Source: Candidatus Parcubacteria bacterium (GTDB lineage: Bacteria; Patescibacteriota; Minisyncoccia; UBA9983). From it: a stretch of 52,762 nt of DNA. Both the position numbers and the translations under genes were made by a program. The notes under the pieces were generated by a model. The model did no database searches, had not been told where the DNA came from, and saw only the letters and a program-made list of their open reading frames with translations. Within the stretch, counting starts at the first letter, position 1. Every line of letters starts with the position of its first letter. Below, piece by piece: positions 1 to 48,750 of the stretch. The stretch spans positions 1 to 52,762 of the forward strand of contig QZIU01000009.1 in NCBI GenBank assembly GCA_003599625.1. The letters are read 5' to 3'.

Positions 1-56
1 ATTTGCTTTAGCCTGATAAATACCAAAATTATATGGTTAAACCGTCAGCTATGACA

Positions 57-217
57 TTTCTACTTTGCTGTGGTATGACATTATCATGTTGCTGTGACAC
101 AAATTATTATTATTATTATTATTAATTATAATAATAATTAGCTGATATATATTACAACAACGTACGGCTTGGTTTGTCGCAACAACATGATGATGTCATA
201 GTACAGCAAAGTAGAAA
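57..217. repeat. Long imperfect inverted repeat (~43-bp arms) around an AT-rich (TTA)n loop
   Basis: Arm 57-99 (tttctactttgctgtggtatgacattatcatgttgctgtgaca) is near-complementary to 175-217, with 5 non-Watson-Crick positions. The loop holds a 12-bp inner stem (102-113/128-139). Confidence 0.85.
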
Positions 218-233
218 AGGCTGGGGTGATAAT

Positions 234-265
234 AAAAAACAGGGAACTAAAAAAGCCCCCTGTTT
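234..265 (-). terminator. Intrinsic terminator after pheA
   Basis: aaacaggg (237-244)/ccctgttt (258-265) stem, followed by a T-run on the minus strand, 12 nt after the pheA stop. Confidence 0.6.
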
Positions 266-277
266 ACAAATAAAGAA

Positions 278-1153
278 CTATTTAGAAGTAATATCTTGAT
301 AAGAACCAATAAAGCGAGGGGGATTCAAAGATAAGCCAAGTTTCCTAAATTCCGACCAAGCATCCACCATTTTCTTGTCAGTGACATAGCCTTCAAATTC
401 CAATAAGAAAGTATATTCCCAGTGCTTTCCGGGTATAGGGCAGGGATATATGAGGAGCAAATTAATTTTCTTGTCAGAAAAAATACTCAGCGTTTTTGCC
501 AATGTACCGGGCATAGACTGTTCTAAATTGATTAAAAAACAAGTCTTATCTTTTCCTGTTTTATTAGCGTGCTCTTTACCTATGATCCAAAACCTTGTCT
601 TGCTATTTTTATGATCTGTTACTGACAGAGGATATATGCGTGTTAAGTTGTACATTTCACAAGCCTTGGATGATGCAATGACAACAATATCATGATCTGT
701 TGATGCTTCTTCAGCTGCAACTCCCGTTGAATCCCTGACCTCAACTATCAATTCCCTATTGTCTTCCCTCAACTGAGAAACAAACTCACTGCACTGTCTT
801 ATCGCAACTGCGTGAGAAAGCAGTTTTTTAGGCGGTTCTGAAATATTTTCTTTGCGAAGATAAAATAATTCTATCGGAACCACAGATTCCGCCCAGACTT
901 TCAAGCCAAGATGCCCATCCACATCTTCTATTGCTCTAATGGTTTCTGTCACGACACCATCTATTACATTTTCAATTGCAACTACGCCATAATTTACCTC
1001 CTTTTTACCAACCGCCAGACAAACCTCCTCATGACTCTTATATGCCATAAAATCAATACTGCTTTCCCCTTGTTTTTTCGCGAAAAAATCCTCAGCAGCT
1101 ATATATCCGAATGTGGACATATTTGGCCCCAAATAACCAACCTTCGTACTCAT
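278..1153 (-). CDS. pheA: Prephenate dehydratase (PDT + ACT domain), no chorismate mutase domain
   Basis: N-terminal YLGP..TF, GVVAIEN, SH.VA..QC, catalytic TRF (SKTRFWII), C-terminal ACT with WEYTF. ATGA overlap with the tyrS stop. Confidence 0.9.
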   Translation of the reverse strand: MSTKVGYLGPNMSTFGYIAAEDFFAKKQGESSIDFMAYKSHEEVCLAVGKKEVNYGVVAIENVIDGVVTETIRAIEDVDGHLGLKVWAESVVPIELFYLRKENISEPPKKLLSHAVAIRQCSEFVSQLREDNRELIVEVRDSTGVAAEEASTDHDIVVIASSKACEMYNLTRIYPLSVTDHKNSKTRFWIIGKEHANKTGKDKTCFLINLEQSMPGTLAKTLSIFSDKKINLLLIYPCPIPGKHWEYTFLLEFEGYVTDKKMVDAWSEFRKLGLSLNPPRFIGSYQDITSK

Positions 1154-2400
1154 TTAGTTTCTCCTTCTAAAATAAGGCGGTGATATTGTTTTTTTCCCCG
1201 CCGAATTATTACAGTAAAATTGTCAAAAAAACTTTCTTTGATTTCCAAATCCAGAGAATTGACTTTTTCCCCGTTTAAAGAAATTCCCCCTTGGCTGATT
1301 AATCTTCTTGCCTCAGACTTTGTTTTGCAAAAGCAAATTTCACACAATAAGTCGACTATCGGCAGACCTTCTTTAATTCTGGAAATTTCAATGCGACTCG
1401 TCGGAATAGATTCCAAATAATTTCCGAGGTTTGAAAATATTGTTTTGCCTGATTTTTCGGCTTTTATGGCCTCTTCTTGGCCATGAACAAGTTTGGTAAC
1501 TTCAAAAGCTAAAATTTCTTTTGCCACCCGAATTTCTTGCCCTTTAAGTTTTTTTAGTTTTACGACATCATCATGTGGCAAAAAAGTGAAAAGATTAAGG
1601 AATCTAATCACATCTTTATCGTCTGTATTAATCCAAAATTGATAAAAATCATAAGGCGATGTTTTTAGCGGATCAAGCCAAATAGTGCCTGCTTCTGTTT
1701 TACCCATCTTGTTGCCTCGAGCTGTTACAAGCAGAGGAAAAGTTAGACCATAAACTTTTTTACTCCGAATAATTCTTACGAGATTAATGCCAGCGATCAT
1801 GTTGCCCCATTGGTCATCACCACCCAATTGCAAAACGCAGTTATGTCTGTCAAATAAAACAAAAAAATCATAAGCCTGAAGAATTTGATAATTAAATTCT
1901 GTAAACGACAACCCTTCTTGCCTGTCCAATCTTTGTTTATATGATTCCGCTTTTATCATCTCGTTAACCTTAAAGTACCTGCCAATATCTCTCAGAAACT
2001 TTATATAGTTAAGATCTAGCAACCAATCTGCGTTATTAATAACAGTTCCGCTTTCACCGTCAAGAATTAAGTATTTCTTGAGTTGGGAAACAATTTTTGC
2101 GTTATTATTAGCAATTTCTTCGCTAGACATTACCCTCCTCATCTCGGTTTTTCCGCTGGGATCACCGATCATGGCGGTTCCGCCACCAATTATACAAACA
2201 GGAAAATGTCCAGCTTTCTGCAAATGAGCCATTGCCATAATTGGTAGCAAACTGCCGACATGCAAACTGTCAGCCGTCGGATCAAAGCCAACATAATAGA
2301 CAACTTTTTCTTCATTAAGTTTCTTAATCAACCCTTCATGATCTGAACATTGCTTAACAAAGCCTCTTTCTTTCAATACATCAAATAGATTACTATTCAA
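1150..2400 (-). CDS. tyrS: Tyrosine--tRNA ligase
   Basis: YVGFDPTADSLHVGS (HIGH), GMIGDPSGK-type motif, QLGGDDQWGN, KMGKT (KMSKS), C-terminal S4 domain. TTG start with AAGGAG Shine-Dalgarno. Confidence 0.97.
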   Translation of the reverse strand: MNSNLFDVLKERGFVKQCSDHEGLIKKLNEEKVVYYVGFDPTADSLHVGSLLPIMAMAHLQKAGHFPVCIIGGGTAMIGDPSGKTEMRRVMSSEEIANNNAKIVSQLKKYLILDGESGTVINNADWLLDLNYIKFLRDIGRYFKVNEMIKAESYKQRLDRQEGLSFTEFNYQILQAYDFFVLFDRHNCVLQLGGDDQWGNMIAGINLVRIIRSKKVYGLTFPLLVTARGNKMGKTEAGTIWLDPLKTSPYDFYQFWINTDDKDVIRFLNLFTFLPHDDVVKLKKLKGQEIRVAKEILAFEVTKLVHGQEEAIKAEKSGKTIFSNLGNYLESIPTSRIEISRIKEGLPIVDLLCEICFCKTKSEARRLISQGGISLNGEKVNSLDLEIKESFFDNFTVIIRRGKKQYHRLILEGETK

Positions 2401-2549
2401 GATATTCTCCTTATATTAAGTTATTAAGGTCTAACAACAAATTCACATGAACTTGCCCTTACCTATCTATCGGCAAGGCTAAATCTTTCTTTGATTATTG
2501 TCAAGGTCAATCGAGTCAATCAGATTAGTAAAACTTCTGATAAAATTAT

Positions 2550-3266
2550 CTAATATTTTTTCAGATAACCTAAATTTAACTGTTCTCTTAATTTTTGGTT
2601 CTCTTTTTTATTTAGATTTTTTCGTAAAGCCAAAGCTATTTTTTCAGTAATAACCCCGTTAAAAGCCATGTTGGCTGATAACTTCACTATTATTTTTGCT
2701 TTTTGCTTATTTATTGGTGTTGATAAATATTTTCCTATTTTTTTTGCTATTGGAGTTTGTAAATTTTTTCTACGCCACTCTACATGACAAAGAATCATAT
2801 CAACATCACTATCTTCCACTTTTTCGTGATTGATTTTTTTAAAATTTGTCATTTTCCATGTATGACGAATAATTCCAAGTAATCCTGATTTTTCAAGCGT
2901 GTCTGCATCGTGCACAACTTTCGCTTCCAAAGTTTTTGGAGTTATTGTTCCTTCATGAGACGCCACACATTCGGCGATATTATTCAATTCATTTGCGGAA
3001 AGATTAAAATGTTTAAGCAAGTTTTTTACTATTTTTTTATTTTTTAGATAGTTGTAATCGTTGCCAGAAGGCAGTGCTGTATCATGCAAAAATGCTCCAG
3101 CTATAACGATAAAATCATTCGCTCCTGTTTTTTGCGCCAGAAACTTTGCCACATGAACAACCCTAAGTAAGTGCTTATTTCCTTTAGACTTACCACCGAA
3201 AGCAACATCGTGATCTGTTTCTAACGCAAGCTTTTTAATTTTTAGAAGTATATTTTTTTTAAGCAT
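2550..3266 (-). CDS. HD-domain phosphohydrolase
   Basis: H (KHLLRV), HD (FLHD), H (ASHEG) and D (HDADTLE) metal ligands all present. Confidence 0.85.
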   Translation of the reverse strand: MLKKNILLKIKKLALETDHDVAFGGKSKGNKHLLRVVHVAKFLAQKTGANDFIVIAGAFLHDTALPSGNDYNYLKNKKIVKNLLKHFNLSANELNNIAECVASHEGTITPKTLEAKVVHDADTLEKSGLLGIIRHTWKMTNFKKINHEKVEDSDVDMILCHVEWRRKNLQTPIAKKIGKYLSTPINKQKAKIIVKLSANMAFNGVITEKIALALRKNLNKKENQKLREQLNLGYLKKY

Positions 3267-3300
3267 AAAGTAATTAAATTATATTTATATTTTTTTTATT

Positions 3301-3349
3301 AAACAATTGGACTGGTGTTGACTCATAACTCAAACCAGTCCAATTGTTT
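3301..3349. repeat. Perfect 16-bp inverted repeat (hairpin)
   Basis: aaacaattggactggt (3301-3316)/accagtccaattgttt (3334-3349). No U-tract on the minus strand. Confidence 0.85.
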
Positions 3350-3362
3350 CGCGCTGAACTTT

Positions 3363-3890
3363 TTAAAAAATGTTTTCAATCAGCATATCCAAATCCACGT
3401 CATTTCCATTATCAATGATGATGTGATTTTGATCATTGGGAGAAAACTTTTCGAAAATATCCTCAAACAAAAGATGCATTTTTAATGCCTCTTCAGTTGA
3501 GAGAATGTGTCCTTTCCTGCTCATTGATTGAAGCCGCTTCTCAACCGTTTCATATGAGCATCGCACTTCAACCCATAGCACCTGCACATCTCGTTCTGTA
3601 CACATAGATTCTAGTCTCGCGCGAAGTGAATTCAAGTGAAAAACTTCGTCCATTATTACCGTTGATATTCCTTGCTTAAAAAGACCGAAAGTATGCTCAA
3701 TGGCTTTTTGATAATAATTCCATCTTTGTTCTGGCGGATCAATTTGGCTTGTTACCAGAAGTGGATCGACATCGTTTTTTTTAAAATCATCAAGATCGAC
3801 AATTTTTGCTCCGATTTTCTTGCTTACTTTTCTAGAAATTGTTGACTTACCTACTCCAGGCAAGCCGGCGAATAATAAAAGTTTCTTCAC
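3363..3890 (-). CDS. Small P-loop kinase (AAA_33-like)
   Basis: Walker A GLPGVGKST; VDLDDF; lid-like motif ETVEKRLQSMSR. GTG start with AAAGGAGG Shine-Dalgarno. Confidence 0.8.
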   Translation of the reverse strand: MKKLLLFAGLPGVGKSTISRKVSKKIGAKIVDLDDFKKNDVDPLLVTSQIDPPEQRWNYYQKAIEHTFGLFKQGISTVIMDEVFHLNSLRARLESMCTERDVQVLWVEVRCSYETVEKRLQSMSRKGHILSTEEALKMHLLFEDIFEKFSPNDQNHIIIDNGNDVDLDMLIENIF

Positions 3891-4155
3891 TTGCTTCCTC
3901 CTTTTTTATTAAATTATAAAAGAACTAAAAAAATGACCTCGCATGAGGTCAGTTTTAGGTGTCTAAATATTTATTTCGGCAACCAAACTAACCTCCCCTT
4001 TTTAAGCCAGTTCTATAATAATATGACATACTATTTAAATTAAAAACTTTCATTATTACCAATCTACACCTTAATAAGGATGATGTCAAATCAACTACCC
4101 CTAATCAACAACTCCTACCTTACACCCTTACTTTTTTTCTTCGCAAAGGACGGCA

Positions 4156-4179
4156 AAAGGAGTCGAATTTGACTCCTTT
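4156..4179 (-). terminator. Probable intrinsic terminator
   Basis: aaaggagtc/gactccttt 9-bp stem just downstream of the 4208..4732 gene. Confidence 0.55.
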
Positions 4180-4207
4180 AATGCAATTAGGAAATCGGGC
4201 ATAATAC

Positions 4208-4732
4208 TTAAATAAATTCAATTACCTTCTTTGCGACCTCTTCCGGCGTTAAGTCGGATGTATCTATAATGGGGGAATTCAGATCCTCGAACACTCTTTT
4301 CATTTGTCCAGAAATATAAATATTTCCGTCAATAAATACAGTAATCGGCTTGCCGATTACTGTCTGGGATTCATTAAAATATCCATCCTTCGAGTATCTA
4401 CCTGTCAAACGCTGGCGAATTACTTCGGGCCTGGCATCCAAAAAGATCAAAACAATTTTAATGTCCTTATTTGATAATAGTTCCTGGAAATCGGCCGGTT
4501 TGACAAAACCGCAGATTATCAAGCTTTTGTTTTCCTGAGCAAGTTTAATCCCTTCTTCAACCCAATATTTTGTTTCCGAAATCCGCCACCTGCCATCGGC
4601 ATTTCCTGGCACACCCCTTTCATCAAAGTCATGTATTTCAAATTTCCTAACCGGCAACACAACTTTCAAGTGGGGCATAATTGATGTTTTGCCGACACCG
4701 TTCACTCCGCTTATAAAATATATCTTATTCAT
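4208..4732 (-). CDS. Small P-loop kinase (shikimate/NMP-kinase-like fold)
   Basis: Walker A GVNGVGKTS, IHDFDE, LDARPEVIRQRL, IIDTS. Visibly paralogous to 7342..7884. Confidence 0.75.
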   Translation of the reverse strand: MNKIYFISGVNGVGKTSIMPHLKVVLPVRKFEIHDFDERGVPGNADGRWRISETKYWVEEGIKLAQENKSLIICGFVKPADFQELLSNKDIKIVLIFLDARPEVIRQRLTGRYSKDGYFNESQTVIGKPITVFIDGNIYISGQMKRVFEDLNSPIIDTSDLTPEEVAKKVIEFI

Positions 4733-4871: not shown

Positions 4872-5525
4872 CTACCGACTTTCAAGATACTTCACGCTTT
4901 CCATTACAAACTCTTTAGCGCCTAATTGCTTTTCCCAAATTAATTTAATTGCTTCCAGTTTTTCTTTTAGGTCGGGATAAAACAATAGCTCTTCCGCGCC
5001 GATGGCGTTGTGGATAGACGGCAAGTTTAGAAAAATAACATTAAAAATCTCGGATAATTCCCAAAGCGCTTTGCTGTCTTTAATGCCGATTGAATAACAA
5101 AAATCATAAAAAGCAAAATGGGTTAATTCGTGAGCGATAACTTCTTTTCGCAGGTGATGCGGGCGTTTGTAATAAACTTGAAAAGTTTTTGTTTCAATAT
5201 ATCTAGGATTGCAGTCAAAGATGGATAAATAACAAGTATAATTTTCCTTACTAAAATCCCGGCCAAAATATTTGCTTAATTCAGTAAATAATGCTTCTTT
5301 AATTTCTGAAAAACATTTTTTAGTATCTTCCAGTGTGTTTAATAATTCTTGCTCATGTGTTTTATAAAAAGTATCTATGTACTCAATGTGATTTTCTTTA
5401 GTGATGCCGGGGTGGTCGTCTCTAATTTTTTTGCCAAAATCAGCCCCACCAAAAACGCTTTCACGGAAAGCTGAGTAAACTTCTTTATCAAGTTGTTTGT
5501 TTAATTTTATTTTCATATTTTTCAC
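4872..5525 (-). CDS. Hypothetical protein with a zincin HExxH motif (putative metallopeptidase)
   Basis: IAHELTH plus a downstream E (ELSEIF). The GTG start overlaps the helicase stop (GTGA); alternative ATG at 5516. Confidence 0.55.
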   Translation of the reverse strand: MKNMKIKLNKQLDKEVYSAFRESVFGGADFGKKIRDDHPGITKENHIEYIDTFYKTHEQELLNTLEDTKKCFSEIKEALFTELSKYFGRDFSKENYTCYLSIFDCNPRYIETKTFQVYYKRPHHLRKEVIAHELTHFAFYDFCYSIGIKDSKALWELSEIFNVIFLNLPSIHNAIGAEELLFYPDLKEKLEAIKLIWEKQLGAKEFVMESVKYLESR

Positions 5526-7180
5526 TTTCTCATAAAAAGCCTGGCCATGCGGATCTCATCGAAGCTGAAGCTGGGGCCGAGGATGTCGCGGGCGGGAGAA
5601 AGCTTCATCTCGCCGGTCTTTTTGTAAACTTGATCGAAAGCCGCCTTTATTTTCTCAAAATTCTCTTTGCAGGGCTTAATGTGCCCGATATCCGATTTCG
5701 GATCGATCATCCCCTCCTCCGCGAGTTTTTCCAGGTGGCTGATGATTGTCCCTTCCGTCATATTTCTTTCTATTGCCATTTCTTTGACCGACTTTTTATC
5801 AAGCGCCAAACATCTGGTTATTTCGCAAGTCGAGAGCTTTTTCTTTTTGCCTTTATATTTTTCCTTCGGCGCGATAGAAGCGAGATATGTTTCCTGCGCG
5901 CGGGTCTTTTCTTCGCCAGGCATGCGCTTTAATTCGTCAGACAACCGATCGGAATGATCCTTGAGTTCTTTATCAAACTCAAGGATATCTTCATTTACCT
6001 TCAAAGCCATTTGATTCAGGCCGAGCAATTTGAGTCCGTCGAGAGTTCTCACCCTGGAAAGCGCCACATAACCCATGCCGCGCTCGAACGATTTTGAAAG
6101 ATCCACCTCCACCGCGTCCAAGCTCATTCCCTGGCTCTTGTGAACCGTGATAGCCCAGGCCAGCCGTAGCGGAACTTGAGAAATTTCCGCCTTGATCTTC
6201 CCTTCCTCCTCTATTGCCCAACTGACTGGAGAAGCCGCGATCCGCTCCCCGCCCGCCGTTTCCACCATGGGCCCGTCGTCATGGAAACCGACAATCTTGC
6301 CGAGTGTTCCGTTCACATAACCTTGTTCGTGATTATTCTTCACGAACATCACCCTTGCTCCCCTCTTCAGCTTTAAAATTTCCGGCGCCAAACAGCTTTT
6401 TTTGAGAGCTTCCAACAAATGGGGTTTTCCCTTATCGCCCATGCGAAAGACGCGTTCCTCCCCGCTGATTCCGTTCAACTCCCGATCATTCACTTCGTCC
6501 ACATCCGCGTTGTGCGTGTAAAGTCTGGTCGGCTGGATAGAATTTTTGGGCTCTTTTTTATATCGGCCTCGCAAGTGATCCAATGTTTCTTCCGAAACGG
6601 TATTGCTTCTTATGTCGTTTAGCACTTTTAAGCAAGTATCGTCCTTCTGGCGGTGCTGCTCATGCAGATAGCAAATTCTGGGATTCATTTTCTGCCACGC
6701 TTCCGATTTGTAAATAAAATGAGCCTCCGGTTCTCCTGTCCTTGCTACGGGCGGAAGCTGGAAGAAATCCCCGCAAAGCACCACTTGCATTCCGCCGAAT
6801 GGCGCGTCCACCCTTCTGATCTTCCGGACGATCTTCTCCGCGAGGTCGAGGCGAAAATGGTGAAGCATCGAGACCTCGTCGATGATAAGAACTTTGGTAT
6901 TTTGGAAACGATCCCAAAGATACTTCCGGCCTTCGATCTCGCTAATATCTCGATCAGTTATTTGATTCTTGATTCCGATCCCCGACCAGGAATGGATAGT
7001 GACGCCGTTCATGTGCGTGGCGGCGATGCCTGTAGAGGCGGTAACGGCCACCGGGGCGTTATGCTTCCGCAAATAATCGATATACTTGTTCAAAAGAAAA
7101 GTCTTCCCGCTTCCGGCGGATCCGGTTAAATAAACACTATGTCCCATCTTTAATACGGCAAAAGCCTCTTCCTGAGTCAT
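5522..7180 (-). CDS. Pif1-family SF1B helicase with C-terminal helix-turn-helix
   Basis: GSAGSGKT, IIDEVSM, GDFFQLPPV, LAWAITVHKSQG, YVALSR; C-terminal HTH (RNMTEGTIISHL). Confidence 0.93.
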   Translation of the reverse strand: MTQEEAFAVLKMGHSVYLTGSAGSGKTFLLNKYIDYLRKHNAPVAVTASTGIAATHMNGVTIHSWSGIGIKNQITDRDISEIEGRKYLWDRFQNTKVLIIDEVSMLHHFRLDLAEKIVRKIRRVDAPFGGMQVVLCGDFFQLPPVARTGEPEAHFIYKSEAWQKMNPRICYLHEQHRQKDDTCLKVLNDIRSNTVSEETLDHLRGRYKKEPKNSIQPTRLYTHNADVDEVNDRELNGISGEERVFRMGDKGKPHLLEALKKSCLAPEILKLKRGARVMFVKNNHEQGYVNGTLGKIVGFHDDGPMVETAGGERIAASPVSWAIEEEGKIKAEISQVPLRLAWAITVHKSQGMSLDAVEVDLSKSFERGMGYVALSRVRTLDGLKLLGLNQMALKVNEDILEFDKELKDHSDRLSDELKRMPGEEKTRAQETYLASIAPKEKYKGKKKKLSTCEITRCLALDKKSVKEMAIERNMTEGTIISHLEKLAEEGMIDPKSDIGHIKPCKENFEKIKAAFDQVYKKTGEMKLSPARDILGPSFSFDEIRMARLFMRK

Positions 7181-7341: not shown

Positions 7342-7884
7342 ATGACTCCTAAGCTTTATTTTATCACTGGTTCGAGCGGAATTGGGAAAAGTACAATAAT
7401 TCCGATTCTTAAATCTAGTCTCACGGATAACTTTGACATACACGACTTTGACGAAAAACTTACAGAAGAAGTTGCGATGAATGGAAGTTTATTAGATGCC
7501 TGGAGAAAAGAAACTACAACATATTGGATTGAACAAGCCCAAAAAAACCAAAAAAATAAAAAATCGACAATCGTTGTTGGTTTAATTTATGTAAGCGAAG
7601 CAACCGAGATAAATACGGACATTTCAATTTCTTTTTGTCTACTTGACGCTTCGGATAAAAAAATAAGAGAGCGGCTTATGGGTAAAAGATTTTCTACGTC
7701 AGAACGAATTGCGGGCCTGAAACAAGCTACCGGGCAAACTCCGGAAGATTTTATAGAAGAAAATAAAAACACAATGGATAGATTGCGACAAGAAGTTAAA
7801 AAGATAAACGGATTTGTTATCGACACGACAAATGATACGCCGAATGAAACAGTAACGAGAGTTATTTCTTGGATTAAGTCCTGA
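7342..7884 (+). CDS. Small P-loop kinase, paralog of 4208..4732
   Basis: Walker A GSSGIGKST, IHDFDE, LDASDKKIRERL, VIDTT. Confidence 0.75.
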   Translation: MTPKLYFITGSSGIGKSTIIPILKSSLTDNFDIHDFDEKLTEEVAMNGSLLDAWRKETTTYWIEQAQKNQKNKKSTIVVGLIYVSEATEINTDISISFCLLDASDKKIRERLMGKRFSTSERIAGLKQATGQTPEDFIEENKNTMDRLRQEVKKINGFVIDTTNDTPNETVTRVISWIKS

Positions 7885-22763: not shown

Positions 22764-23759
22764 CTATTCGCTTATCAAATTCTTAATTATCTTTATCATT
22801 GTCTCTTTTTCTTTCGGCTGGCTTTCGGCGACAAGGAGGGCCAAGGCCACAAGCGCGTTGTCATTTATCTTTCTATCGCCGGATTTTTTGAAGAGATAAT
22901 TTGTCCTGTCTAAGAAATAAACAAACAAAAAAGCGGCGGAACGTTTGTTTCCGTCAGAAAATGGATGATCTTTAATGATGAAATACAAAAGGTGTGAAGC
23001 TTTGTCTTCCACTGTCGGATAAAGTTCTTTCCCGCCGAAGGACTGGTAGAGCCCATTGATGATTCCTTCAAAAGCGCCTCCTCTTTCCTGCCCGAAAAGA
23101 TCTCCCGCTTCCATTTTCGTTATCAATTCTTTTTTTAGCTCGGTTATTATCTTAATCGAGTCGTCATATTTCAAAACGAATTTTGTTTTGCCACCTTTTG
23201 GTTCCTTCAACTGGCCTTTATCATATTGCTCAAGCAGCGATAAAGTCTTGGCATAATTGGAGAGCAAATGCAAAATTTCTCCCGCTTGACCGGATAATAA
23301 TTCTCTTTGAGACTTTTCTTGTAAGAATGATATGGCGGTCTGGAGTTCTTGGAATTTTTCGCGGGCTTCCAGAAGTCGTTTTTCGTTGATTGTATAGCCT
23401 TTCAATAAGTGATTTTTCAGTGTTTTTGTAGCCCAGATACGAAACTGAGTCGCTCTTTTTGAATTAACGCGGTAACCAGTAGAAATAATCATATCCAAAT
23501 TATAGATATTCATTTTTCTGATTTTTCCATCAGCGGCAACCTGTTCCAAAATGGAACAGGTTGAATTTCCATCCAATTCGCCGGTTTTATAAATGTTTTT
23601 GATATGTTTTACTATCGCTGGACGATTAACATCAAATAGTACGGCTATCTGATGAGCGTCAAGCCATATCGTTTCATTTTCAAACCGCACCTTCAACTCG
23701 ACCTCGTTTTTTGAGGTTTTGTAGATTATTATTTCCCCTTTTGAAAAATTGTTCTTCAT
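22764..23759 (-). CDS. RhuM-like N-domain fused to a Fic/Doc domain
   Basis: YNLDMIISTGYRVNSKRATQFRIWAT (RhuM-like) and HPFSDGNKR (Fic/Doc). Start reset to ATG 23759. Confidence 0.88.
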   Translation of the reverse strand: MKNNFSKGEIIIYKTSKNEVELKVRFENETIWLDAHQIAVLFDVNRPAIVKHIKNIYKTGELDGNSTCSILEQVAADGKIRKMNIYNLDMIISTGYRVNSKRATQFRIWATKTLKNHLLKGYTINEKRLLEAREKFQELQTAISFLQEKSQRELLSGQAGEILHLLSNYAKTLSLLEQYDKGQLKEPKGGKTKFVLKYDDSIKIITELKKELITKMEAGDLFGQERGGAFEGIINGLYQSFGGKELYPTVEDKASHLLYFIIKDHPFSDGNKRSAAFLFVYFLDRTNYLFKKSGDRKINDNALVALALLVAESQPKEKETMIKIIKNLISE

Positions 23760-23800
23760 ATTCTTAACTAGATAATACCACAAAATTAACGCCCGCAAAT

Positions 23801-33071: not shown

Positions 33072-35585
33072 TCATCCGATCCTCAATAATCTTTGCCGTT
33101 CTATTCTTTCGATTGCCGCGGAAATATCATTTTTCTTTTCCAGAATCTCTCTCCACGGATCTCCTTTCTTTTCTATCCTCTGGCGGATGTTGAAAATATT
33201 GAAATCGGAAGGTTTTATTTTTCCACTCAACTCTTTCCAGACCAAAGGAGTCGAGACGGGCGCGCCGTCAAGCGGCCTGACGGAATAAGGGGCCGCGACC
33301 GTCTGGCCTTTTACATTCTGCAAATAATCGAGATAAACTCTGCCCCTTCTTCTGTCGGGAAGCCTCTCGAGGCTCGTGATCTCGGGAATCCGGCGGTAAG
33401 TCATATTGGCGATAATCTCGGCAAAATTCCTGCCTTGCTCATAAGTGTAATTTTCTTTCAGCGGGATGTAGATGTGAAGGCCTTTGGCTCCGGAAGTTTT
33501 GCACAATCCGAATATTCGCAGCTCATCCATGACCTTCTTCACCTCAAGAGCCACGGCCAAAACTTTGTCAAAATCCACCTCAAGCGGATCAAGATCAATA
33601 ACGACATGATCGGGACTGTCCGGAGAAAAATATCTGGAAAGCCATGGATGAATTTCGATGCAACCAAGATTAGCCATGTAGATAAGAGTCGCCCTGTTCT
33701 GGCACAGAAGATAGGAGATTTTCTTCTTTTCCGATTCAGCCCGAATATCGACGGTCTCAAGCCAGTCGGGAGAAATGCCCTTGTCTATGTCTTTGTGATA
33801 AAACGCTGGCTTTTCTATCCCCTCCGGAAATCGATGCATGGTTTCCGGTCTGTCTTTGATATAAGGCAGAATATGCGGCGCGATCTGATCGTAATAATTT
33901 ACCAGATCTTTTTTGGTGTACCCGTCTTTCGGCCAGTAAACTTTATCAAGATTGGTAAGAATGAGTTTCTTGCCATCGATCATAATCTCTTCTTCTTTTT
34001 CTTTAAGGCGATAATACCTGGGTCGCGGACGAGGCTCGCCGCCAATTAGCATAGAAAATTCTCTGACAACTTCCTTCGGGTCCTTATCTTCTCTTAATCC
34101 AATAAAAACTGGCTGCCTCATAACGCCATCCTTTGTCCATTCCCGAAATTTGATCTCGCATACGAGCTGCGGCTCAAGCCAAACTGCCGGTTCGTTTGTT
34201 TGCGGCGTTTCGATAAACGGAGAGTCCTCTCTTTTAAATCCGCTCATCTTTTCATAAAGTTCTTCTGCCGTTTTAGAATCAAAACCGGTCCCAACATGCC
34301 CGATGTATCTTAAATTATTATTCTCGTAAACCCCGAGGACTAGAGCGCCGAAATATCCTTGCCCCGCTCTTGGCAAAGTAAAACCGGCAATGACCGCTTC
34401 CTGTCTTTGCTCCGTTTTTATTTTTAACCAATCCGCGCTTCTTGCTCCCGACCGATAAGGACTGTTGAGATTCTTTGCCATCATGCCCTCCAAACCCTGC
34501 CGCCGGATCGCTTCAAAAAATCGCTGTCCTTTTTCTTCGACATAATCGGAAAGTTTAACGGAGGCAAGATCGTACTTGGAAAACAACAACCGCAAAAGTT
34601 CCCTCCTGTCTTTCAGGGCAAGTCTCCTGACATCTCGCCCGTTTAAAAAAAGCAGATCGAAAACAAAATATATCACTTGACCCTTCCGGTCGCGGCGATA
34701 ATCCTGAAGCGTCTGGAAGTCCGGTTTTCCTTCGTCATTCAATGCCACGATCTCTCCGTCCAAAACAACTCCTTCTTTAATTACTTCAAAGGAGGAAGCA
34801 ACCGTCGGATAATCTTCGTTCAACAACACATTTTTGCGGGAGTATAGTTTCGCTTTGCCGCCGGAAACGAATGCCAACGCCCGGTAACCATCCCGCTTCG
34901 GCTCGAATATCCAGTCTTTCTTGTCGAAGGCTCTATCGGCCAACTTGGCAAACATCGGCTTGACGCTTGCCGGTTCGGGAGGGCTTTCTTCGGAATTTGC
35001 CAAACCGACCTCCTCCGTTTCCACTTCTTCCACCGTTCTTCCGCTCTTTACCGATCTTTCATCAAACTTAATATTTTCATCGGCGTACTCGTCTCTTTTC
35101 TTGATCATCAGCCAGGCATTGTCTCCCCCGCGAGCCATTTTTGCCAGGGCGAATTCTCCTTGCAATTTTTTCCCCGCTAAAATTATCGTCAATCGGCCTT
35201 TATTTATGCTGTCCAAAACTTTCTCGTCAAAAGTTTTTCCCTTGCCGCTTTTTATTTCATAAGTTCCCTCATCCCATACTATCACCGGGCCAGCCCCGTA
35301 ATTTCCCTCCGGTATCACCCCTTCGAATGAGCGGTAATCGAGCGGATGATCTTCCACCATCATTGCCAACCTCTTGTCCGCCGGATTCATGGAGGGGCCT
35401 TTCGGCACCGCCCAGCTCTTCAAAACGCCGTCCGCTTCTATTCTGAAATCATAATGAAGCCTGGAAGCGGAATGTTTTTGGATCACGAAATGATATTCAT
35501 CCGCGACTTTCGGGCGGACAGGCTTTGCCGCCGGTTCGCGCGTTTTTTTGAAATTCCTTTTCCTGCCGTATTCTTCAAGGATCAT
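33072..35585 (-). CDS. ligD: DNA ligase D (phosphoesterase-ligase-polymerase)
   Basis: QKHSASRLHYDFR (PE), EPKRDGYR (ligase KxDG), DLDP and KTSGAKGLH (PrimPol). Confidence 0.96.
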   Translation of the reverse strand: MILEEYGRKRNFKKTREPAAKPVRPKVADEYHFVIQKHSASRLHYDFRIEADGVLKSWAVPKGPSMNPADKRLAMMVEDHPLDYRSFEGVIPEGNYGAGPVIVWDEGTYEIKSGKGKTFDEKVLDSINKGRLTIILAGKKLQGEFALAKMARGGDNAWLMIKKRDEYADENIKFDERSVKSGRTVEEVETEEVGLANSEESPPEPASVKPMFAKLADRAFDKKDWIFEPKRDGYRALAFVSGGKAKLYSRKNVLLNEDYPTVASSFEVIKEGVVLDGEIVALNDEGKPDFQTLQDYRRDRKGQVIYFVFDLLFLNGRDVRRLALKDRRELLRLLFSKYDLASVKLSDYVEEKGQRFFEAIRRQGLEGMMAKNLNSPYRSGARSADWLKIKTEQRQEAVIAGFTLPRAGQGYFGALVLGVYENNNLRYIGHVGTGFDSKTAEELYEKMSGFKREDSPFIETPQTNEPAVWLEPQLVCEIKFREWTKDGVMRQPVFIGLREDKDPKEVVREFSMLIGGEPRPRPRYYRLKEKEEEIMIDGKKLILTNLDKVYWPKDGYTKKDLVNYYDQIAPHILPYIKDRPETMHRFPEGIEKPAFYHKDIDKGISPDWLETVDIRAESEKKKISYLLCQNRATLIYMANLGCIEIHPWLSRYFSPDSPDHVVIDLDPLEVDFDKVLAVALEVKKVMDELRIFGLCKTSGAKGLHIYIPLKENYTYEQGRNFAEIIANMTYRRIPEITSLERLPDRRRGRVYLDYLQNVKGQTVAAPYSVRPLDGAPVSTPLVWKELSGKIKPSDFNIFNIRQRIEKKGDPWREILEKKNDISAAIERIERQRLLRIG

Positions 35586-35609
35586 TTTTGATTATTCCGC
35601 CGCTAGCTG

Positions 35610-36386
35610 TTAAGGCGAAGGTTTCGTCTTCTCCAAACTGGCCTTCAACATCTTAAGGAGATCTTCGGCCCTGGTGGGAACGGGCAATTCTTTCGAGGCG
35701 GGAACGATCATTTCTCCTTTGGCTTTCTTCTCGATTATCTCTCTCAGCTCGCCGGAATAAGTGTCATGATATTTTTCCGGTTCGAACGGCCCGGATAGAT
35801 TTTCTATAAGTTTTAACGCCGCTTCGACCTCGCTTTCGATAAATTCTTCTTTCGGCAGCTTGAGAGAAGCGGGGTCTCTTATCTGATCGGAGTATCTTAA
35901 TTTGTGCAAGATCAACAAATTAGCGTCCGGCTTGATGACGCACAAGATTTCTTTATTCCGCAAAACGAATTTTCCGATAGCCGCTTTCTTCGACCTCTTC
36001 AGGGCTTCTCTCATCAAGGTGTAAGCTTTTTCCGCCCCCTTGTCCGGCTCAAGATAATACGGCTTCTCGTAATATTTGCTTTCCACTTCGTGATCGTCCG
36101 CGAAATTCGATATATCTATCGTCTTTGTCTTTCGCACATCCACACTGTCGAAATCTTCCCGAGTAAGAATGACGTAATTCCCTTTCTTGTACTCAAAACC
36201 TTTGACAAGATCTTCATAAGAAACTTCCCGCCCGTCTTTGGAGCAAATCCTCGCGTATCTGATCGGATACGAATCCTCGCGGTGAAGCAAATGAAATTGA
36301 AACTCCCTTTCTTCGGCAGCGCTGTATAATTTAATAGGTATATTGACAAGGCCAAAACTTATCGATCCGCTCCATATGTCACGCAT
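35610..36386 (-). CDS. ku: Ku protein (NHEJ)
   Basis: W.GSISFGLVNIPIKLYSA, KGFEY, KPYYL. Start reset to ATG 36386. Confidence 0.96.
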   Translation of the reverse strand: MRDIWSGSISFGLVNIPIKLYSAAEEREFQFHLLHREDSYPIRYARICSKDGREVSYEDLVKGFEYKKGNYVILTREDFDSVDVRKTKTIDISNFADDHEVESKYYEKPYYLEPDKGAEKAYTLMREALKRSKKAAIGKFVLRNKEILCVIKPDANLLILHKLRYSDQIRDPASLKLPKEEFIESEVEAALKLIENLSGPFEPEKYHDTYSGELREIIEKKAKGEMIVPASKELPVPTRAEDLLKMLKASLEKTKPSP

Positions 36387-36511
36387 ATTCAATACCCGCC
36401 CCCGAAGCGGATACAAAAGAGGTAACTCCTCGCGGAAAATATTGGTATTATTTTAATATATTATTCTGATTCCACCGCATAACCCTGATAAAGGGGGGGA
36501 TAGCAAAGAAA

Positions 36512-37039
36512 TTAAGAGTTAGATAAAAATTTGTGGATCCGCTGGATAACCTCGTCTGGCAAGATGTTGGTGGTGTCCACCGTCAGATCGAAAGAATCTT
36601 CGGAAAGATCCGACAAACTGATTCCGTAGAGTTTGGCGTATCTTTCATTGGCGCTTTCTTCTCTGGCAATGGTTTTTTGCTTGGCTTCATCGAAAGGGAT
36701 ACATTCGCGGGCGGCAAGCCTTTTGATTCTCGCGTCGAAATCGCAAGCAAGCCGGATCTTCACAGAATCAGGGATGAACCTCCACCCCAAGCGGCTTTCC
36801 AAAACAAAATTATCGTTTTCTTTGCCGAACTTGGCAATATATTCGTCCCTTTCCTTGTCGTAAACCAAATTCGTCCGGCACATTTCTTCAAAAGCGTAAA
36901 ATTCGTATCCAAGATCTCGCGCCGTTTTTCTAGCCATATCTCCGCCGGAAAGAAAGTTGAATTTCAGATCGTCCGCCAGTCTCTTTCCAACGACCGACTT
37001 GCCAACTCCCGCCAAACCGAAAATCGTAATTTTTGCCAT
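36512..37039 (-). CDS. cmk: Cytidylate kinase (archaeal-type family)
   Basis: GLAGVGKS, SGGDMAR, VLESRLG, RYAKLYGI, DLTVDTT. Confidence 0.8.
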   Translation of the reverse strand: MAKITIFGLAGVGKSVVGKRLADDLKFNFLSGGDMARKTARDLGYEFYAFEEMCRTNLVYDKERDEYIAKFGKENDNFVLESRLGWRFIPDSVKIRLACDFDARIKRLAARECIPFDEAKQKTIAREESANERYAKLYGISLSDLSEDSFDLTVDTTNILPDEVIQRIHKFLSNS

Positions 37040-39936: not shown

Positions 39937-40350
39937 CTATCTAGTATTATCTACTATCTTTATGAATTCCTCTATGTCTTTTATGTCTCCCTGCAATATC
40001 TGATAAACAAGATCATAATTTACTTTCTCGTAGTCGTGAGCAACTATGTTTCTAAACCCCGTCATGCCGATCATTTTTTCCGTAAGGTTTTGGTCTATAA
40101 CCCCTTCTTCGTTAAGAATATGAAAACTTTCGCTAAGTGTGGATGGTTTGCGAAATTTTTTATAAGCGATCACCGCCTCTGCCAAATCTATAGTGGCTTG
40201 CGACACCAAATAAAGATATCTCTCTACCGCTCCTCTTATATCAATGTTGCTTTCAATCTCTTCCCTGGAATATTTTTTATATCTATCCAAAATTTTAAGA
40301 TATTTTCTTATGGAGCTTATTTTGTTTTCTATAACAACGGGATTGCTCAT
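39937..40350 (-). CDS. hepT: HEPN ribonuclease toxin (DUF86/HepT)
   Basis: RX4HXY motif RNIVAHDY. Confidence 0.88.
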   Translation of the reverse strand: MSNPVVIENKISSIRKYLKILDRYKKYSREEIESNIDIRGAVERYLYLVSQATIDLAEAVIAYKKFRKPSTLSESFHILNEEGVIDQNLTEKMIGMTGFRNIVAHDYEKVNYDLVYQILQGDIKDIEEFIKIVDNTR

Positions 40351-40351
40351 A

Positions 40352-40744
40352 TTAGGCTTTTGTTAAGTTATATTTTGATAAGATAGTTCTAAAATCAAAA
40401 TATTCATTCAAAATCTTTGGCTCGACTAAAATCTTATACGGTTCCAGCTCGTAAATCAGCCTTCCTTCTTTAATAATATTATACTTTACTTCCGGGCTTT
40501 TGATCAGGTCGAGAATAACTATGTCCAATTTGTCTGTCTTCAGCTCTCTGCTTATCTTATCTTGCAAAGAAAATTTGACTTTGAAAATTTTGCCGGTATC
40601 CCGCTCATCAAGATAAAAAGCAAAGTCGTAATCACTGAGCGGCCCGCTGTCGCCCCTGGCTTTTGAGCCGAAGAAATAGGCCAGTTTTATTTCCGGGTAA
40701 GATTTGATTATATTGACTATTTTTTCAATTTTATCATTTTCCAT
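40352..40744 (-). CDS. mntA: Minimal nucleotidyltransferase antitoxin
   Basis: GSX10DXD (GSKARGDSGPLSDYD); directly upstream of hepT. Confidence 0.88.
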   Translation of the reverse strand: MENDKIEKIVNIIKSYPEIKLAYFFGSKARGDSGPLSDYDFAFYLDERDTGKIFKVKFSLQDKISRELKTDKLDIVILDLIKSPEVKYNIIKEGRLIYELEPYKILVEPKILNEYFDFRTILSKYNLTKA

Positions 40745-41535: not shown

Positions 41536-44301
41536 TTAGAAATTATATTTTCTTCTTATCTCTTCCTCGACTTGGCTCCTCGGCGCCCCATATCTCGCCA
41601 GCGAGAGCATGGCGGCATCGCGTCCGCGTTCCGGATCTCCTTTTTTGAAAGGCAAAGTTTTGATGTTGAACGGCCTTGCGGACTGTCCTTCTATGAGGAG
41701 CTTCAAGTAAGCGTTGTAGTTGTCTATATTCATAAGATCGTTTGGCCCGAAAACCGGCTCGAATTGCTTGGCTAGAAATTCGGCATCTTCCGCGCCAATT
41801 CTGAAGGAACACATGGAACCGACGTTTCCAAAAACCGCCTTCTTGATTCCCTCCTCCAGTTGTCCGATGAACTGATGGGCGATTATCAGATCCAGCCTGT
41901 ACTTCCTGGCCTCGGAAAGGATGGTGGCGATGGAATCGGTGGTAACATTTTGGAATTCGTCTATGTACAAATAGAAATCGTTTCTCTCGCTTTCCGGAAT
42001 ATCGACTCGCGAAAGCGCGGCCATCAAAAGCTTGCCGACGATTATCAGACCGATCAAATTGGAGTTGATGTCTCCCAATCGCCCTTTGGAAAGATTTATC
42101 AGCAGGATCTTCTTTTCATCCATGACTTTTCTGAAATTAAAAGAGGATTTTTCTTGCGCGATGATCGGCCTCATGATGTCGTTGCCAAGGAAGTTGTCGA
42201 ATTTGCTGGTGATGTAAGGAACCATGTTTTGCAAAGAAGCCTCGCCTCCGGCTTTTTCCGCCACGTCTCTCCAGAACAATTTAACAACCGGATTGTTGCA
42301 TCGGGACAGTTTGTGGTCGCGGAATTCTTTGTTACTGAGAACTCTGGCGATCTCAAATAAGGTATTGCCCGACTCCGGATCCTCCATAACAAGCAGAGCG
42401 GAGTTTCTGAAATACTGTTCGAACATCGGCCCGCCAGTCGCCTTCATGTCGAAAAGTTTGTTGAAGATTCCCAACAACTCATTTACTATAAATGTCTTCT
42501 GCTCCGGATAATTGGGGTCGTATTCCAGCATGTTCAGGCCCATCACCCTGTCCATTTTCCCGGGATCGAAATAGATCAGATCGTCCACTCTTTCAACCGG
42601 GATCCTGGCGAGGATTTCTTCAAGATCGGAACCGTGCGGATCTATATAGCAAACCCCTTTACCCTGCTCGATGTCTTGGACGATCATATTCTTGAGCAAA
42701 ACTGATTTACCTGTTCCCGTCTGGCCGATCAGATAAAGATGCCTTCTGCGGTCGTCTTCTCTCATGTAAATATCGGATTCTTCGCCCCTATAAAGATTTT
42801 TGCCGAGCAATGTTCCCGCCTGGGGCAGATTTAGCGGAGGGGGCGCGTCTTTGGCTTTGACATACTTCAATTGGGAAATGGTCGTGATTCCTCTCGGAAA
42901 ATGGAATATCGTGGAAATTTCCGCCGTATTAAGATAAACGGCTTCTTTTTTGTCGAACAGCCGGAAAGAAAATTTATAGAAAAGATCCTCAAGTTCTTTC
43001 CCCATCGCCTCGCGCCATTTGAGACTGTTGCCTTGCGCTTCAGTGAATTGCAAAATGGAACTTTCAATTTCTTTCAGGATCCTGTTCGATTTTTCCGGAT
43101 CCTCCGAGGAGACAAGGATTCTTAGATTTGCCGCCAAAAGCGGCCGGGATGCTTTCTCCTCCACCATCTTGGCAAGACTTTCGTTGACCGGCTTTTCCTT
43201 CTCATTTTTTCGCTCGTTTTTCGGATCTTCTTCTTTTTTATGATCATCGGAAGATCTGAAAAGAAAATCGTCGAACACTGAAAGAATGTCGAATCCGGTC
43301 ACCTTGGCTTTCTTGAGAGCTTCGGGGAGCTTCTCGCCTTTTCTAAGCTCATCAGCCGTCTTTTTTGTCTTTTTAAGATAAGAAGGATCAGCCGGACCCA
43401 AGACCACCTGCAAAGCCGCCCCCTCCCCCATCTTATGAAGCTTGGAAAAGGCGTTGATTATGACAAGCAAAGGATCGACTTCGAACTTGTCGTAAGTTCT
43501 CAGCGGTAAAACATAATGGGTCTTCAAGCTAATGATCGCGCCCGCGCTGGCTCCGCCGGGCCTGAAGATGTTGTAGTCCTCTTTGCGTTCTTCGATCTTG
43601 GAATTCGGAAAAAGAGCCGTGATCTGTTTCTCCAGCAAATGACTCTTGTTTCTTGGCACGGCGGCGTAAAAAACTATCTCCTCGCCGATCGTCGGCAAAC
43701 CCACCTCCAGCGAGAAATACGGATTTTCTCCATCCTGCTGGATGATCATCATGCCGCTGTAAAACTGCTCCATCGCGGCAATGAACTCTTTGAAGGTTTT
43801 CTCCCTGCCGCCTTCTTTTTGCGCTTCTTCGCGGGGCAGGCTGATCTCGTAAAGCGCCGCGCTCATGGCCTGAGAAATAGGCTTGGCTAATTTTTCTTTA
43901 TAACCGATCTTGACGTAAAATTGAATTAACGCCCGGTGAAGATCGTCTTCCAGGTGGGGGTTATTGAGATTTTTAGCCACGGTAAGGGCGTTCAAAATGC
44001 CTTTTTCTTCGGCCAAAGCCAGAAGTTCTTCGATCTTGGCGTCATGCTCTTCCGCCGGAAGATTAAGAAGCTTCGCGACAAGACTTTCTTTTTCTTTGTC
44101 CGATATTCGGTACTTTTCCGTCAGAACGGTTTCCGGCTTGGAGGCGGCATGCCGGTAAAAAACTTCCTTTGCCGGTTCTCCCGATTCCGGAACTTTCTCC
44201 TTGCCGCTCTCCACCTCGAGTTTCTTCTGCTCGTAATGGCTCTTCAGCCACTCCAATTCCTCCCGCGGCGAATTGAATTTTTGCTCAACATTCGGTTGCA
44301 T
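41536..44301 (-). CDS. VirD4/TraG/HerA-like P-loop ATPase
   Basis: HLYLIGQTGTGKS, YIDPHG, YIDEFQN, SEARKY, HQFIGQL. TATAAT at 44310-44315. Confidence 0.85.
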   Translation of the reverse strand: MQPNVEQKFNSPREELEWLKSHYEQKKLEVESGKEKVPESGEPAKEVFYRHAASKPETVLTEKYRISDKEKESLVAKLLNLPAEEHDAKIEELLALAEEKGILNALTVAKNLNNPHLEDDLHRALIQFYVKIGYKEKLAKPISQAMSAALYEISLPREEAQKEGGREKTFKEFIAAMEQFYSGMMIIQQDGENPYFSLEVGLPTIGEEIVFYAAVPRNKSHLLEKQITALFPNSKIEERKEDYNIFRPGGASAGAIISLKTHYVLPLRTYDKFEVDPLLVIINAFSKLHKMGEGAALQVVLGPADPSYLKKTKKTADELRKGEKLPEALKKAKVTGFDILSVFDDFLFRSSDDHKKEEDPKNERKNEKEKPVNESLAKMVEEKASRPLLAANLRILVSSEDPEKSNRILKEIESSILQFTEAQGNSLKWREAMGKELEDLFYKFSFRLFDKKEAVYLNTAEISTIFHFPRGITTISQLKYVKAKDAPPPLNLPQAGTLLGKNLYRGEESDIYMREDDRRRHLYLIGQTGTGKSVLLKNMIVQDIEQGKGVCYIDPHGSDLEEILARIPVERVDDLIYFDPGKMDRVMGLNMLEYDPNYPEQKTFIVNELLGIFNKLFDMKATGGPMFEQYFRNSALLVMEDPESGNTLFEIARVLSNKEFRDHKLSRCNNPVVKLFWRDVAEKAGGEASLQNMVPYITSKFDNFLGNDIMRPIIAQEKSSFNFRKVMDEKKILLINLSKGRLGDINSNLIGLIIVGKLLMAALSRVDIPESERNDFYLYIDEFQNVTTDSIATILSEARKYRLDLIIAHQFIGQLEEGIKKAVFGNVGSMCSFRIGAEDAEFLAKQFEPVFGPNDLMNIDNYNAYLKLLIEGQSARPFNIKTLPFKKGDPERGRDAAMLSLARYGAPRSQVEEEIRRKYNF

Positions 44302-48732: not shown

Positions 48733-48750
48733 AAATTAAAAATTTAAAAT

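Follow-up and report, generated by a model that had tools for sequence, protein, structure and literature searches.

Patescibacteria (the candidate phyla radiation, or CPR) are generally regarded as being without most amino-acid biosynthesis. Why, then, should a member of this group keep a gene for prephenate dehydratase (PDT), and keep it overlapping the gene for tyrosyl-tRNA synthetase (TyrRS)? The question is raised by a contig of a Candidatus Parcubacteria bacterium (QZIU01000009.1, assembly GCA_003599625.1; 52,762 nt), referred to at its full length as the window, in which a PDT gene at 278..1153 (minus strand; 291 amino acids) lies directly downstream of tyrS at 1150..2400 (minus strand; 416 amino acids). 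An initial annotation of this DNA had the coordinates of the two genes and their overlap right but left the strand unstated; both are on the minus strand. On balance, the sequences compared here favour reading the PDT as an active prephenate (possibly arogenate) dehydratase whose response to effectors has changed and which is expressed together with TyrRS. What is new is a conserved tyrS–PDT gene pairing together with a variant, within a known enzyme family, that lacks the Glu-Ser-Arg-Pro (ESRP) motif of the C-terminal ACT domain; no description of a tyrS–pheA/PDT pair or of an ESRP-less PDT clade in Patescibacteria was found in the searchable literature, which also gave nothing relevant on Patescibacteria PDTs in general.

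The dehydratase and its ACT domain

The product of 278..1153 is a prephenate/arogenate dehydratase belonging to an ESRP-less Patescibacteria clade, with a PBP-type catalytic domain followed by an ACT domain. It matches PF00800 at 116.3 bits (gathering threshold 25.2; E=1.8e-33) across profile positions 1–180 of 181. An AF2 model (pLDDT 94.7) predicts the full β-α-β-β-α-β succession of an ACT domain, with strands at residues 202–209, 232–239, 247–254 and 280–286 and helices at 217–226 and 260–272. The best fold matches of the model are the PDT structures 2qmx, 6vh5, 3mwb and 2qmw (TM 0.79–0.83), and structures of the PDT homologue GqqA are also among the top matches (TM 0.79). The protein has no match to the chorismate mutase domain CM_2 and its PDT domain begins at residue 5, so that it does not have the make-up of a bifunctional P-protein. 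In an alignment with Escherichia coli PheA (NC_000913.3), from which the motif positions given here are taken, the catalytic-site residues are kept, with E61, N62, S113, Q120 and T186-R187-F188 corresponding to E. coli E159, N160, S208, Q215 and T278-R279-F280. The E61-N62 pair is encoded at 968..973 (minus strand) and the TRF motif, rightly described as intact in the initial annotation, at 590..598 (minus strand). Within the clade, the catalytic residues are invariant or nearly so in 119–120 members; E61-N62 is unchanged in 119 of 119 and in the outgroup as well.

The clade was delimited from a search of 5.8 billion proteins, which gave 192 matches at E≤1e-5; the best 120 of these 192 were used, and they are 38–84% identical to the window PDT. 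Where labelled, nearly all of the 120 are assigned to Patescibacteria, Parcubacteria, Pacebacteria, Roizmanbacteria, Taylorbacteria or Minisyncoccia. Motif counts for the clade refer to the 118 of the best 120 homologues that cover the site.

GALV and ESRP are described as ligand-binding motifs of the ACT domain in two papers (PMC10845154 and PMC13217925), which cite Pohnert et al. 1999 and Tan et al. 2008. The window PDT reads INLLLIYPCP at 437–466 (minus strand), which places Y236-P-C-P239 (437..448, minus strand), at the end of the second ACT β-strand, where E. coli has E329-S330-R331-P332; as had been noticed initially, the equivalents of E329, S330 and R331 are all replaced and only the proline is kept. 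Ser-Arg at this site occurs in none of the 118 clade members; xSRP is present in all of approximately 70 non-CPR PDTs retrieved with the same profile (from Actinomycetota, Chloroflexota, archaea and others), at least 52 of which have ESRP, with LSRP, VSRP and QSRP among the rest. By these counts, the replacement of ESRP is beyond chance. What stands in its place is a clade consensus, (I/V)(N/S)(L/V)LL(I/V)-(Y/F)-P-x-P-I-x-G-(K/R)-x-W-E-Y-T-F, in which Y236 reaches 64%, P237 91% and P239 84%, and position 238 is variable (I/S/N/C). The remainder of the motif, I240-P-G-K-H-W-E-Y-T-F249 in the window (407..436, minus strand), follows PIxG(K/R)xWEYTF across the 118 homologues, with I240 at 92%, G242 at 97%, W245 at 99% and E246, Y247 and F249 each at 100%. 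The initial annotation had considered that YPCP might be a common variant among feedback-sensitive homologues; this holds by half, in that YPxP-type motifs are the rule within the clade.

Several further comparisons bear on the extent of the clade. An exhaustive HMMER scan of 1.84 billion representatives gave only 37 clusters at E≤1e-30, and when the motifs of its top 150 are inspected, the ESRP-less type grades into ordinary ESRP types below approximately 125 bits. In a neighbour-joining tree, which is rough and carries no support values, the ESRP-less sequences form one cluster. Longer clade members contain PDT domains only, apart from one duplicated chorismate mutase–PDT protein of ESRP-like type. 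Judged by its distribution, the loss of ESRP is a feature of the clade and not a private mutation of the window PDT. The GALV equivalent, G216-T-L-A219 in an ACT loop (497..508, minus strand; E. coli G309-A310-L311-V312), is a different matter. The glycine is invariant and the leucine mostly kept in the clade, and although the change to GTLA had been read correctly in the initial annotation, it was set aside as a meaningful change because ESRP-bearing PDTs also vary at both differing positions (S/A/G at 310; V/Y/M/L/K at 312).

Mean pairwise identity within the clade is 0.515 for the ACT domain and 0.465 for the catalytic domain, a pattern also seen in the ESRP-bearing outgroup. The ACT domain is no less conserved than the catalytic domain and would thus appear to be still functional, and the exchange of Glu-Ser-Arg for another conserved motif suggests that classical Phe feedback has probably been lost or has given way to a response to some other effector. 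The disappearance of the canonical effector motif claimed in the initial annotation is real, and the altered Phe feedback that it read from that loss is plausible.

The tyrS–PDT pair and its descent

The partner gene is an ordinary one. tyrS begins with TTG and encodes a full-length, bacterial-type TyrRS that scores well above the equivalog cutoff of TIGR00234 (426.4 bits against 113.8; E=1.2e-127) and contains all three expected domains, PF00579 (1e-82), SYY_C-terminal (PF22421) and S4 (PF01479). Among its top 120 homologues, the nearest kin are Patescibacteria TyrRSs, at up to 71% identity, and no TyrRS–PDT fusion occurs. There is no second tyrS within the window.

The signals between and around the two genes point to a single operon. 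An ATGA at 1150..1153 (minus strand) holds both the stop codon of tyrS (TGA) and the start codon of PDT (ATG), and this TGA is taken as the true tyrS stop because in close relatives TAA terminates tyrS at the corresponding position. A Shine–Dalgarno sequence for PDT, AAGGAG, lies inside the 3′ end of tyrS at 1161..1166 (minus strand), 7 nt 5′ of the ATG, and almost all related loci have an AGGAG-like site ahead of the start of PDT. Thus, the overlap described in the initial annotation and the translational coupling drawn from it both hold. No terminator-like site was found between tyrS and PDT. However, 13 nt past the PDT stop, at 237..265 (minus strand), there is an intrinsic-terminator-like hairpin with a 12-bp stem and a T-rich tail (TTTATTATCA), which is likely to be the end of the tyrS–PDT operon. 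With no such site between the genes and one right after PDT, PDT would most likely be translated from the tyrS mRNA, its production keeping pace with that of TyrRS.

To follow the pair across relatives, related loci (labelled L001–L179) were fetched for comparison with the window. In 16 of the 18 distinct CPR-type loci found through PDT, tyrS is directly upstream, the exceptions being L007 and L090; within the fetched flanks of approximately 70 non-CPR, ESRP-bearing PDT loci, tyrS is never present. The two genes overlap by 4 nt in L097, L099, L087 and L012, as in the window, abut at 0 nt in two loci and are separated by 9–29 nt in the other loci that could be measured. When approached from the other side, every locus with a TyrRS of 62% identity or more and with room on the contig (L096–L103 and L175) has PDT downstream, in damaged form in L099 and L100/L101; among the remaining loci fetched through TyrRS, an adjacent CPR-type PDT is found only in L110. 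The pair occurs in divergent Patescibacteria, including Parcubacteria-type metagenome-assembled genomes (MAGs) and others labelled Pacebacteria, Moraniibacteriota, Minisyncoccia, Saccharibacteria and Nomurabacteria. Across its carriers, PDT identity falls from 84% to 38% and TyrRS identity drops in parallel. The flanking genes differ among the window, L087, L175 and L177–L179, and the pair stays whole throughout.

By its synteny and co-divergence, the pair is an old, vertically co-inherited unit with a housekeeping tyrS and a hallmark of one small Patescibacteria clade. The initial annotation had proposed a horizontally acquired module. A recent import is rejected because the synteny is clade-wide, TyrRS and PDT have diverged together, and the TyrRS is of ordinary type and nearest to those of other Patescibacteria.

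Recurrent neighbours of the pair, in the flanks of L001, L005, L087, L090, L092, L102, L178 and L179, include an Asp/Glu racemase, an MR_MLE enolase-superfamily protein, an M20 peptidase, an HtrA-type protease and a low-molecular-weight phosphatase.

Probable function of the paired dehydratase

That the window PDT is probably a working enzyme is suggested by selection and by the company that its clade keeps elsewhere. Among the near relatives L096–L098, for which dS is 0.22–0.37 and thus unsaturated, dN/dS is 0.05–0.08 for PDT compared to 0.15–0.19 for tyrS, and the window is 82–84% identical to these relatives in PDT but only about 71% in TyrRS. Hence, purifying selection acts more strongly on PDT than on its partner. 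The window open reading frame (ORF) is intact and carries every clade-invariant residue, and six or more close relatives have intact copies of 291–292 amino acids, in differing genomic contexts. In some relatives, the same type of PDT sits among genes for aromatic biosynthesis. L005/L013 and L092 have a DAHP synthase, tyrS–PDT, an aminotransferase and two genes resembling that for prephenate dehydrogenase (PDH), one of which has an arogenate-dehydrogenase-type C-terminal domain (PF26213). One or two aromatic-pathway genes lie near the pair in L003, L009, L102 and L110, with DAHP synthase, PDH and aminotransferase genes noted for L003, L005 and L092. L090 (10001–17845), which is CPR-type and without tyrS, contains PDT, an Aminotran_4 protein, a FAD-binding protein, EPSP synthase, a CM_2 chorismate mutase, PDH, chorismate synthase and shikimate kinase. 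Such a compact aromatic cluster is unusual for Patescibacteria.

The explanation favoured here would therefore run as follows. The PDT would derive from an aromatic neighbourhood of DAHP synthase, tyrS, PDT, aminotransferase and prephenate/arogenate dehydrogenase that survives in some relatives, and would share a transcript and translational coupling with the housekeeping tyrS. The ACT domain would still be functional, with the Pro-rich (Y/F)PxPIxG(K/R)xWEYTF in place of Glu-Ser-Arg at the canonical Phe site, and feedback would more probably be altered than simply mutated away. The main control to be seen on PDT would then be its coupling to tyrS expression.

A number of observations weigh against this explanation. 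In profile searches, the Pfam ACT match of the window PDT is below threshold (19.4 bits against 27), as is its match to the NCBIfam equivalog PRK11898 (165.6 bits; cutoff 219). Among approximately 50 window ORFs searched with Pfam, essentially all those of at least 127 amino acids, and in a tblastn search of the window with a CPR-derived panel, there is no gene for chorismate mutase, PDH or an aromatic aminotransferase, nor any aro gene; the presence of chorismate mutase or aro genes had been left open in the initial annotation, and none lies within the 52.7 kb, of which 277 nt are visible downstream of PDT. The flanks of the closest relatives (L087, L096–L100, L103 and L175) likewise yielded no aromatic-pathway genes, and a source of substrate is therefore unshown in the window lineage. 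In addition, several relatives have broken copies. In L099 (3277–4885), a PDT of 84–87% identity is interrupted past residue ~170 by an insert of approximately 730 nt. L100 (5974–7536) and L101, which come from two separate metagenomes, have one in-frame ORF of 520 amino acids that joins TyrRS residues 1–~384 to PDT residues ~162–291, keeping TRF and the entire ACT domain and having lost the half with E61/N62; this ORF could be either a deletion pseudogene or a natural TyrRS–ACT fusion. L079 (9998–10258), on a Nomurabacteria contig, has an 86-amino-acid PDT stub after tyrS, and L007 (2179–3183; GW2011_GWA2_40_143) has a PDT without tyrS whose 5′ end has been replaced, giving a foreign N-terminus. 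These copies imply that the gene is dispensable in some lineages. In L015 (2480–4532), both tyrS and PDT are frameshifted; its MAG is labelled Planctomycetota, and the contig is probably a misbinned CPR one.

The L099 insert encodes, on the opposite strand, a 227-amino-acid transposase-like protein that is IS1595-like by sequence motifs alone. A group I or II intron was considered for this insert and rejected, given the encoded transposase and the lack of any Rfam match. In the window itself, four small ORFs of P-loop kinase-like type (AAA_33, AAA_18 and cytidylate-kinase-like) lie scattered at 3363–3890, 4208–4732, 7342–7884 and 36512–37039. The first of these was discarded as an aro gene, since its shikimate kinase match (PF01202) reaches only 20.6 bits against 22.1 and covers the P-loop only.

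Rather unlikely, though the best of the alternatives, is that in these reduced genomes a protein with PDT fold and ACT domain has given up its part in de novo Phe synthesis and become a neofunctionalized partner of TyrRS, for example as an aromatic amino-acid sensor with a new ligand site on ACT, or else acts on a scavenged or different substrate, much as the homologue GqqA also hydrolyses acyl-homoserine lactones. The persistence of the pair while all flanking genes change, and its very tight or overlapping gene spacing, would fit such a role, as would the constraint on PDT beyond that on tyrS in a lineage without visible aro genes and an ACT motif that has been rewritten and yet is nearly invariant. 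The in-frame joining of TyrRS to the C-terminal half of PDT in two metagenomes, and the place of GqqA among the top fold matches (PMC8192741), point the same way. However, a true PDT's catalytic residues are all invariant, although a pure sensor could do without them, the same clade sits in aromatic biosynthesis clusters in relatives, no fusion was seen among the top 120 TyrRS homologues and the L100 ORF may equally well be a deletion. Similarly improbable is the narrower form of the idea, that the ESRP-less PDT/ACT protein was retained after loss of the chorismate pathway, and held under tighter constraint than TyrRS, as a TyrRS partner, whether sensor or enzyme with a new ACT ligand site, that sets Phe/Tyr supply or TyrRS activity.

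It is more doubtful still that the PDT is a decaying relic, left over from a lost aromatic pathway and persisting only through the operon of the essential tyrS. The lack of other pathway genes in 52.7 kb and the several independently broken copies in relatives are what decay would produce, but dN/dS is below that of tyrS, the ORF has every clade-invariant residue and the close relatives have intact copies of the same length in different contexts.

The reading put forward in the initial annotation concerned phenylalanyl-tRNA synthetase (PheRS) at 47449–49584, which it described as editing-less, and on this description it was correct. The window PheRS is minimal, with a pheT of 427 codons (47449–48732) whose product has only B5, CLM and FDX-ACB domains and is without B1 and the B3_4 editing domain, and a pheS product of 277 amino acids. 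This short PheT architecture is common to a subgroup of approximately 60 clusters (50–62% identity), while the next-nearest CPR PheTs (612–741 amino acids) keep B3_4. Among the fetched loci, pheST is in none but the window, where alone short pheT and tyrS–PDT occur together. That a horizontally acquired tyrS–pheA module tunes the Phe/Tyr ratio to compensate for this PheRS is highly improbable, for although the short pheS and the B3_4-less pheT do share the window with the pair and a PDT insensitive to feedback would presumably give more Phe relative to Tyr, the two genes occur and diverge together across the clade and are not a recent import, the TyrRS resembles those usual in Patescibacteria and the window shows no other copy of it, a source of substrate is unshown, and the PDT clade spans several Patescibacteria groups, including Saccharibacteria and Nomurabacteria, in suggestive mismatch with the single subgroup that has the short PheT.

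If the PDT is, as favoured here, an active dehydratase with changed control, then a constrained gene tied to the essential tyrS, along with aromatic clusters in relatives, would suggest that an aromatic pathway has been retained or is eroding stepwise in part of the radiation, and the tyrS–PDT pair would offer a concrete marker for tracing that erosion. The ACT domain may be viewed as a natural experiment, in which the textbook Phe-binding ESRP has been replaced by an equally conserved motif and effector specificity would have been either switched or abolished. Should it be true that these genomes give PDT no source of substrate, the pair would become a candidate for a new synthetase-associated function.

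Surroundings of the pair and comparison with known systems

Upstream of tyrS, a Shine–Dalgarno sequence (AAGGAG, 2407..2412, minus strand) lies 6 nt 5′ of the TTG, and the intergenic space is of 149 nt only. The co-directional neighbour beyond it encodes an HD-domain protein (2550..3266, minus strand; PF01966) and is possibly in the same transcription unit as tyrS–PDT; HD-domain homologues also precede the pair in L003, L009, L012, L096–L099 and L103. At the other end, just past the PDT terminator and at the window edge (57–217), a 43-nt inverted repeat (57–99 and 175–217; 88% complementary) encloses an AT-rich palindrome (102–139). Elsewhere in the window, regions at 33072–36416, 39937–40744, 22764–23798, 41536–44301 and 5522–7180 encode, among others, LigD (ligase, primase-polymerase and phosphoesterase) with Ku, for non-homologous end joining, a HepT/MNT toxin–antitoxin pair, a RhuM/Fic protein, a 921-amino-acid ATPase resembling a type IV secretion system coupling protein, and a PIF1-family helicase.

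The closest structural counterparts of the window PDT are the monofunctional PDTs of Chlorobium tepidum (2qmx), Brucella (6vh5), Arthrobacter (3mwb) and Staphylococcus aureus (2qmw), which, at the TM values given above, have the same two-lobed PBP-type domain and C-terminal ACT domain, the TRF residues and a similar length. The window PDT, however, is just 19–24% identical to them, scores below the NCBIfam equivalog cutoff and has YPxP and PIxG(K/R)xWEYTF in place of ESRP, and the PDT gene of its clade adjoins tyrS. The E. coli P-protein PheA has homologous PDT and ACT domains, with E159, N160, S208, Q215, T278, G309, L311, P332 and W338 all conserved in the window PDT. In contrast to PheA, the window protein has no chorismate mutase domain and has E329, S330 and R331 all replaced, and an Rfam scan detected no pheL-type attenuator or other leader at its operon. 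The aromatic supraoperons and T-box-regulated tyrS genes of Firmicutes likewise group synthetase or amino-acid pathway genes for co-regulation. An Rfam scan of positions 1–4200 (E≤1) gave no match of note to a T-box or other leader 5′ of the window tyrS, unlike in Firmicutes, and control of the operon by a T-box was ruled out on that basis.

The feedback-relaxed type II arogenate dehydratases (ADTs) of plants belong to the same family, and in them changes in the ACT domain (variation in the PAC domain) accompany relaxed Phe feedback (PMC13217925). Many plant ADTs keep GALV and ESRP, with Phe sensitivity being attributed to the PAC region (PMC13217925, PMC10845154), whereas the window PDT has lost ESRP itself and has no transit peptide. 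An arogenate route is possible for the clade, in view of the PF26213-containing TyrA-like genes near the pair in relatives. Finally, GqqA of Komagataeibacter europaeus (7am0) is a PDT homologue that has acylase activity towards N-acyl homoserine lactones (AHLs) and binds L-Phe at the interface of its ACT dimer (PMC8192741). It comes from an unrelated taxon and gene context, and its likeness to the window PDT is one of fold, including the ACT domain (TM 0.79); it sets a precedent for extra activities in proteins of this architecture.

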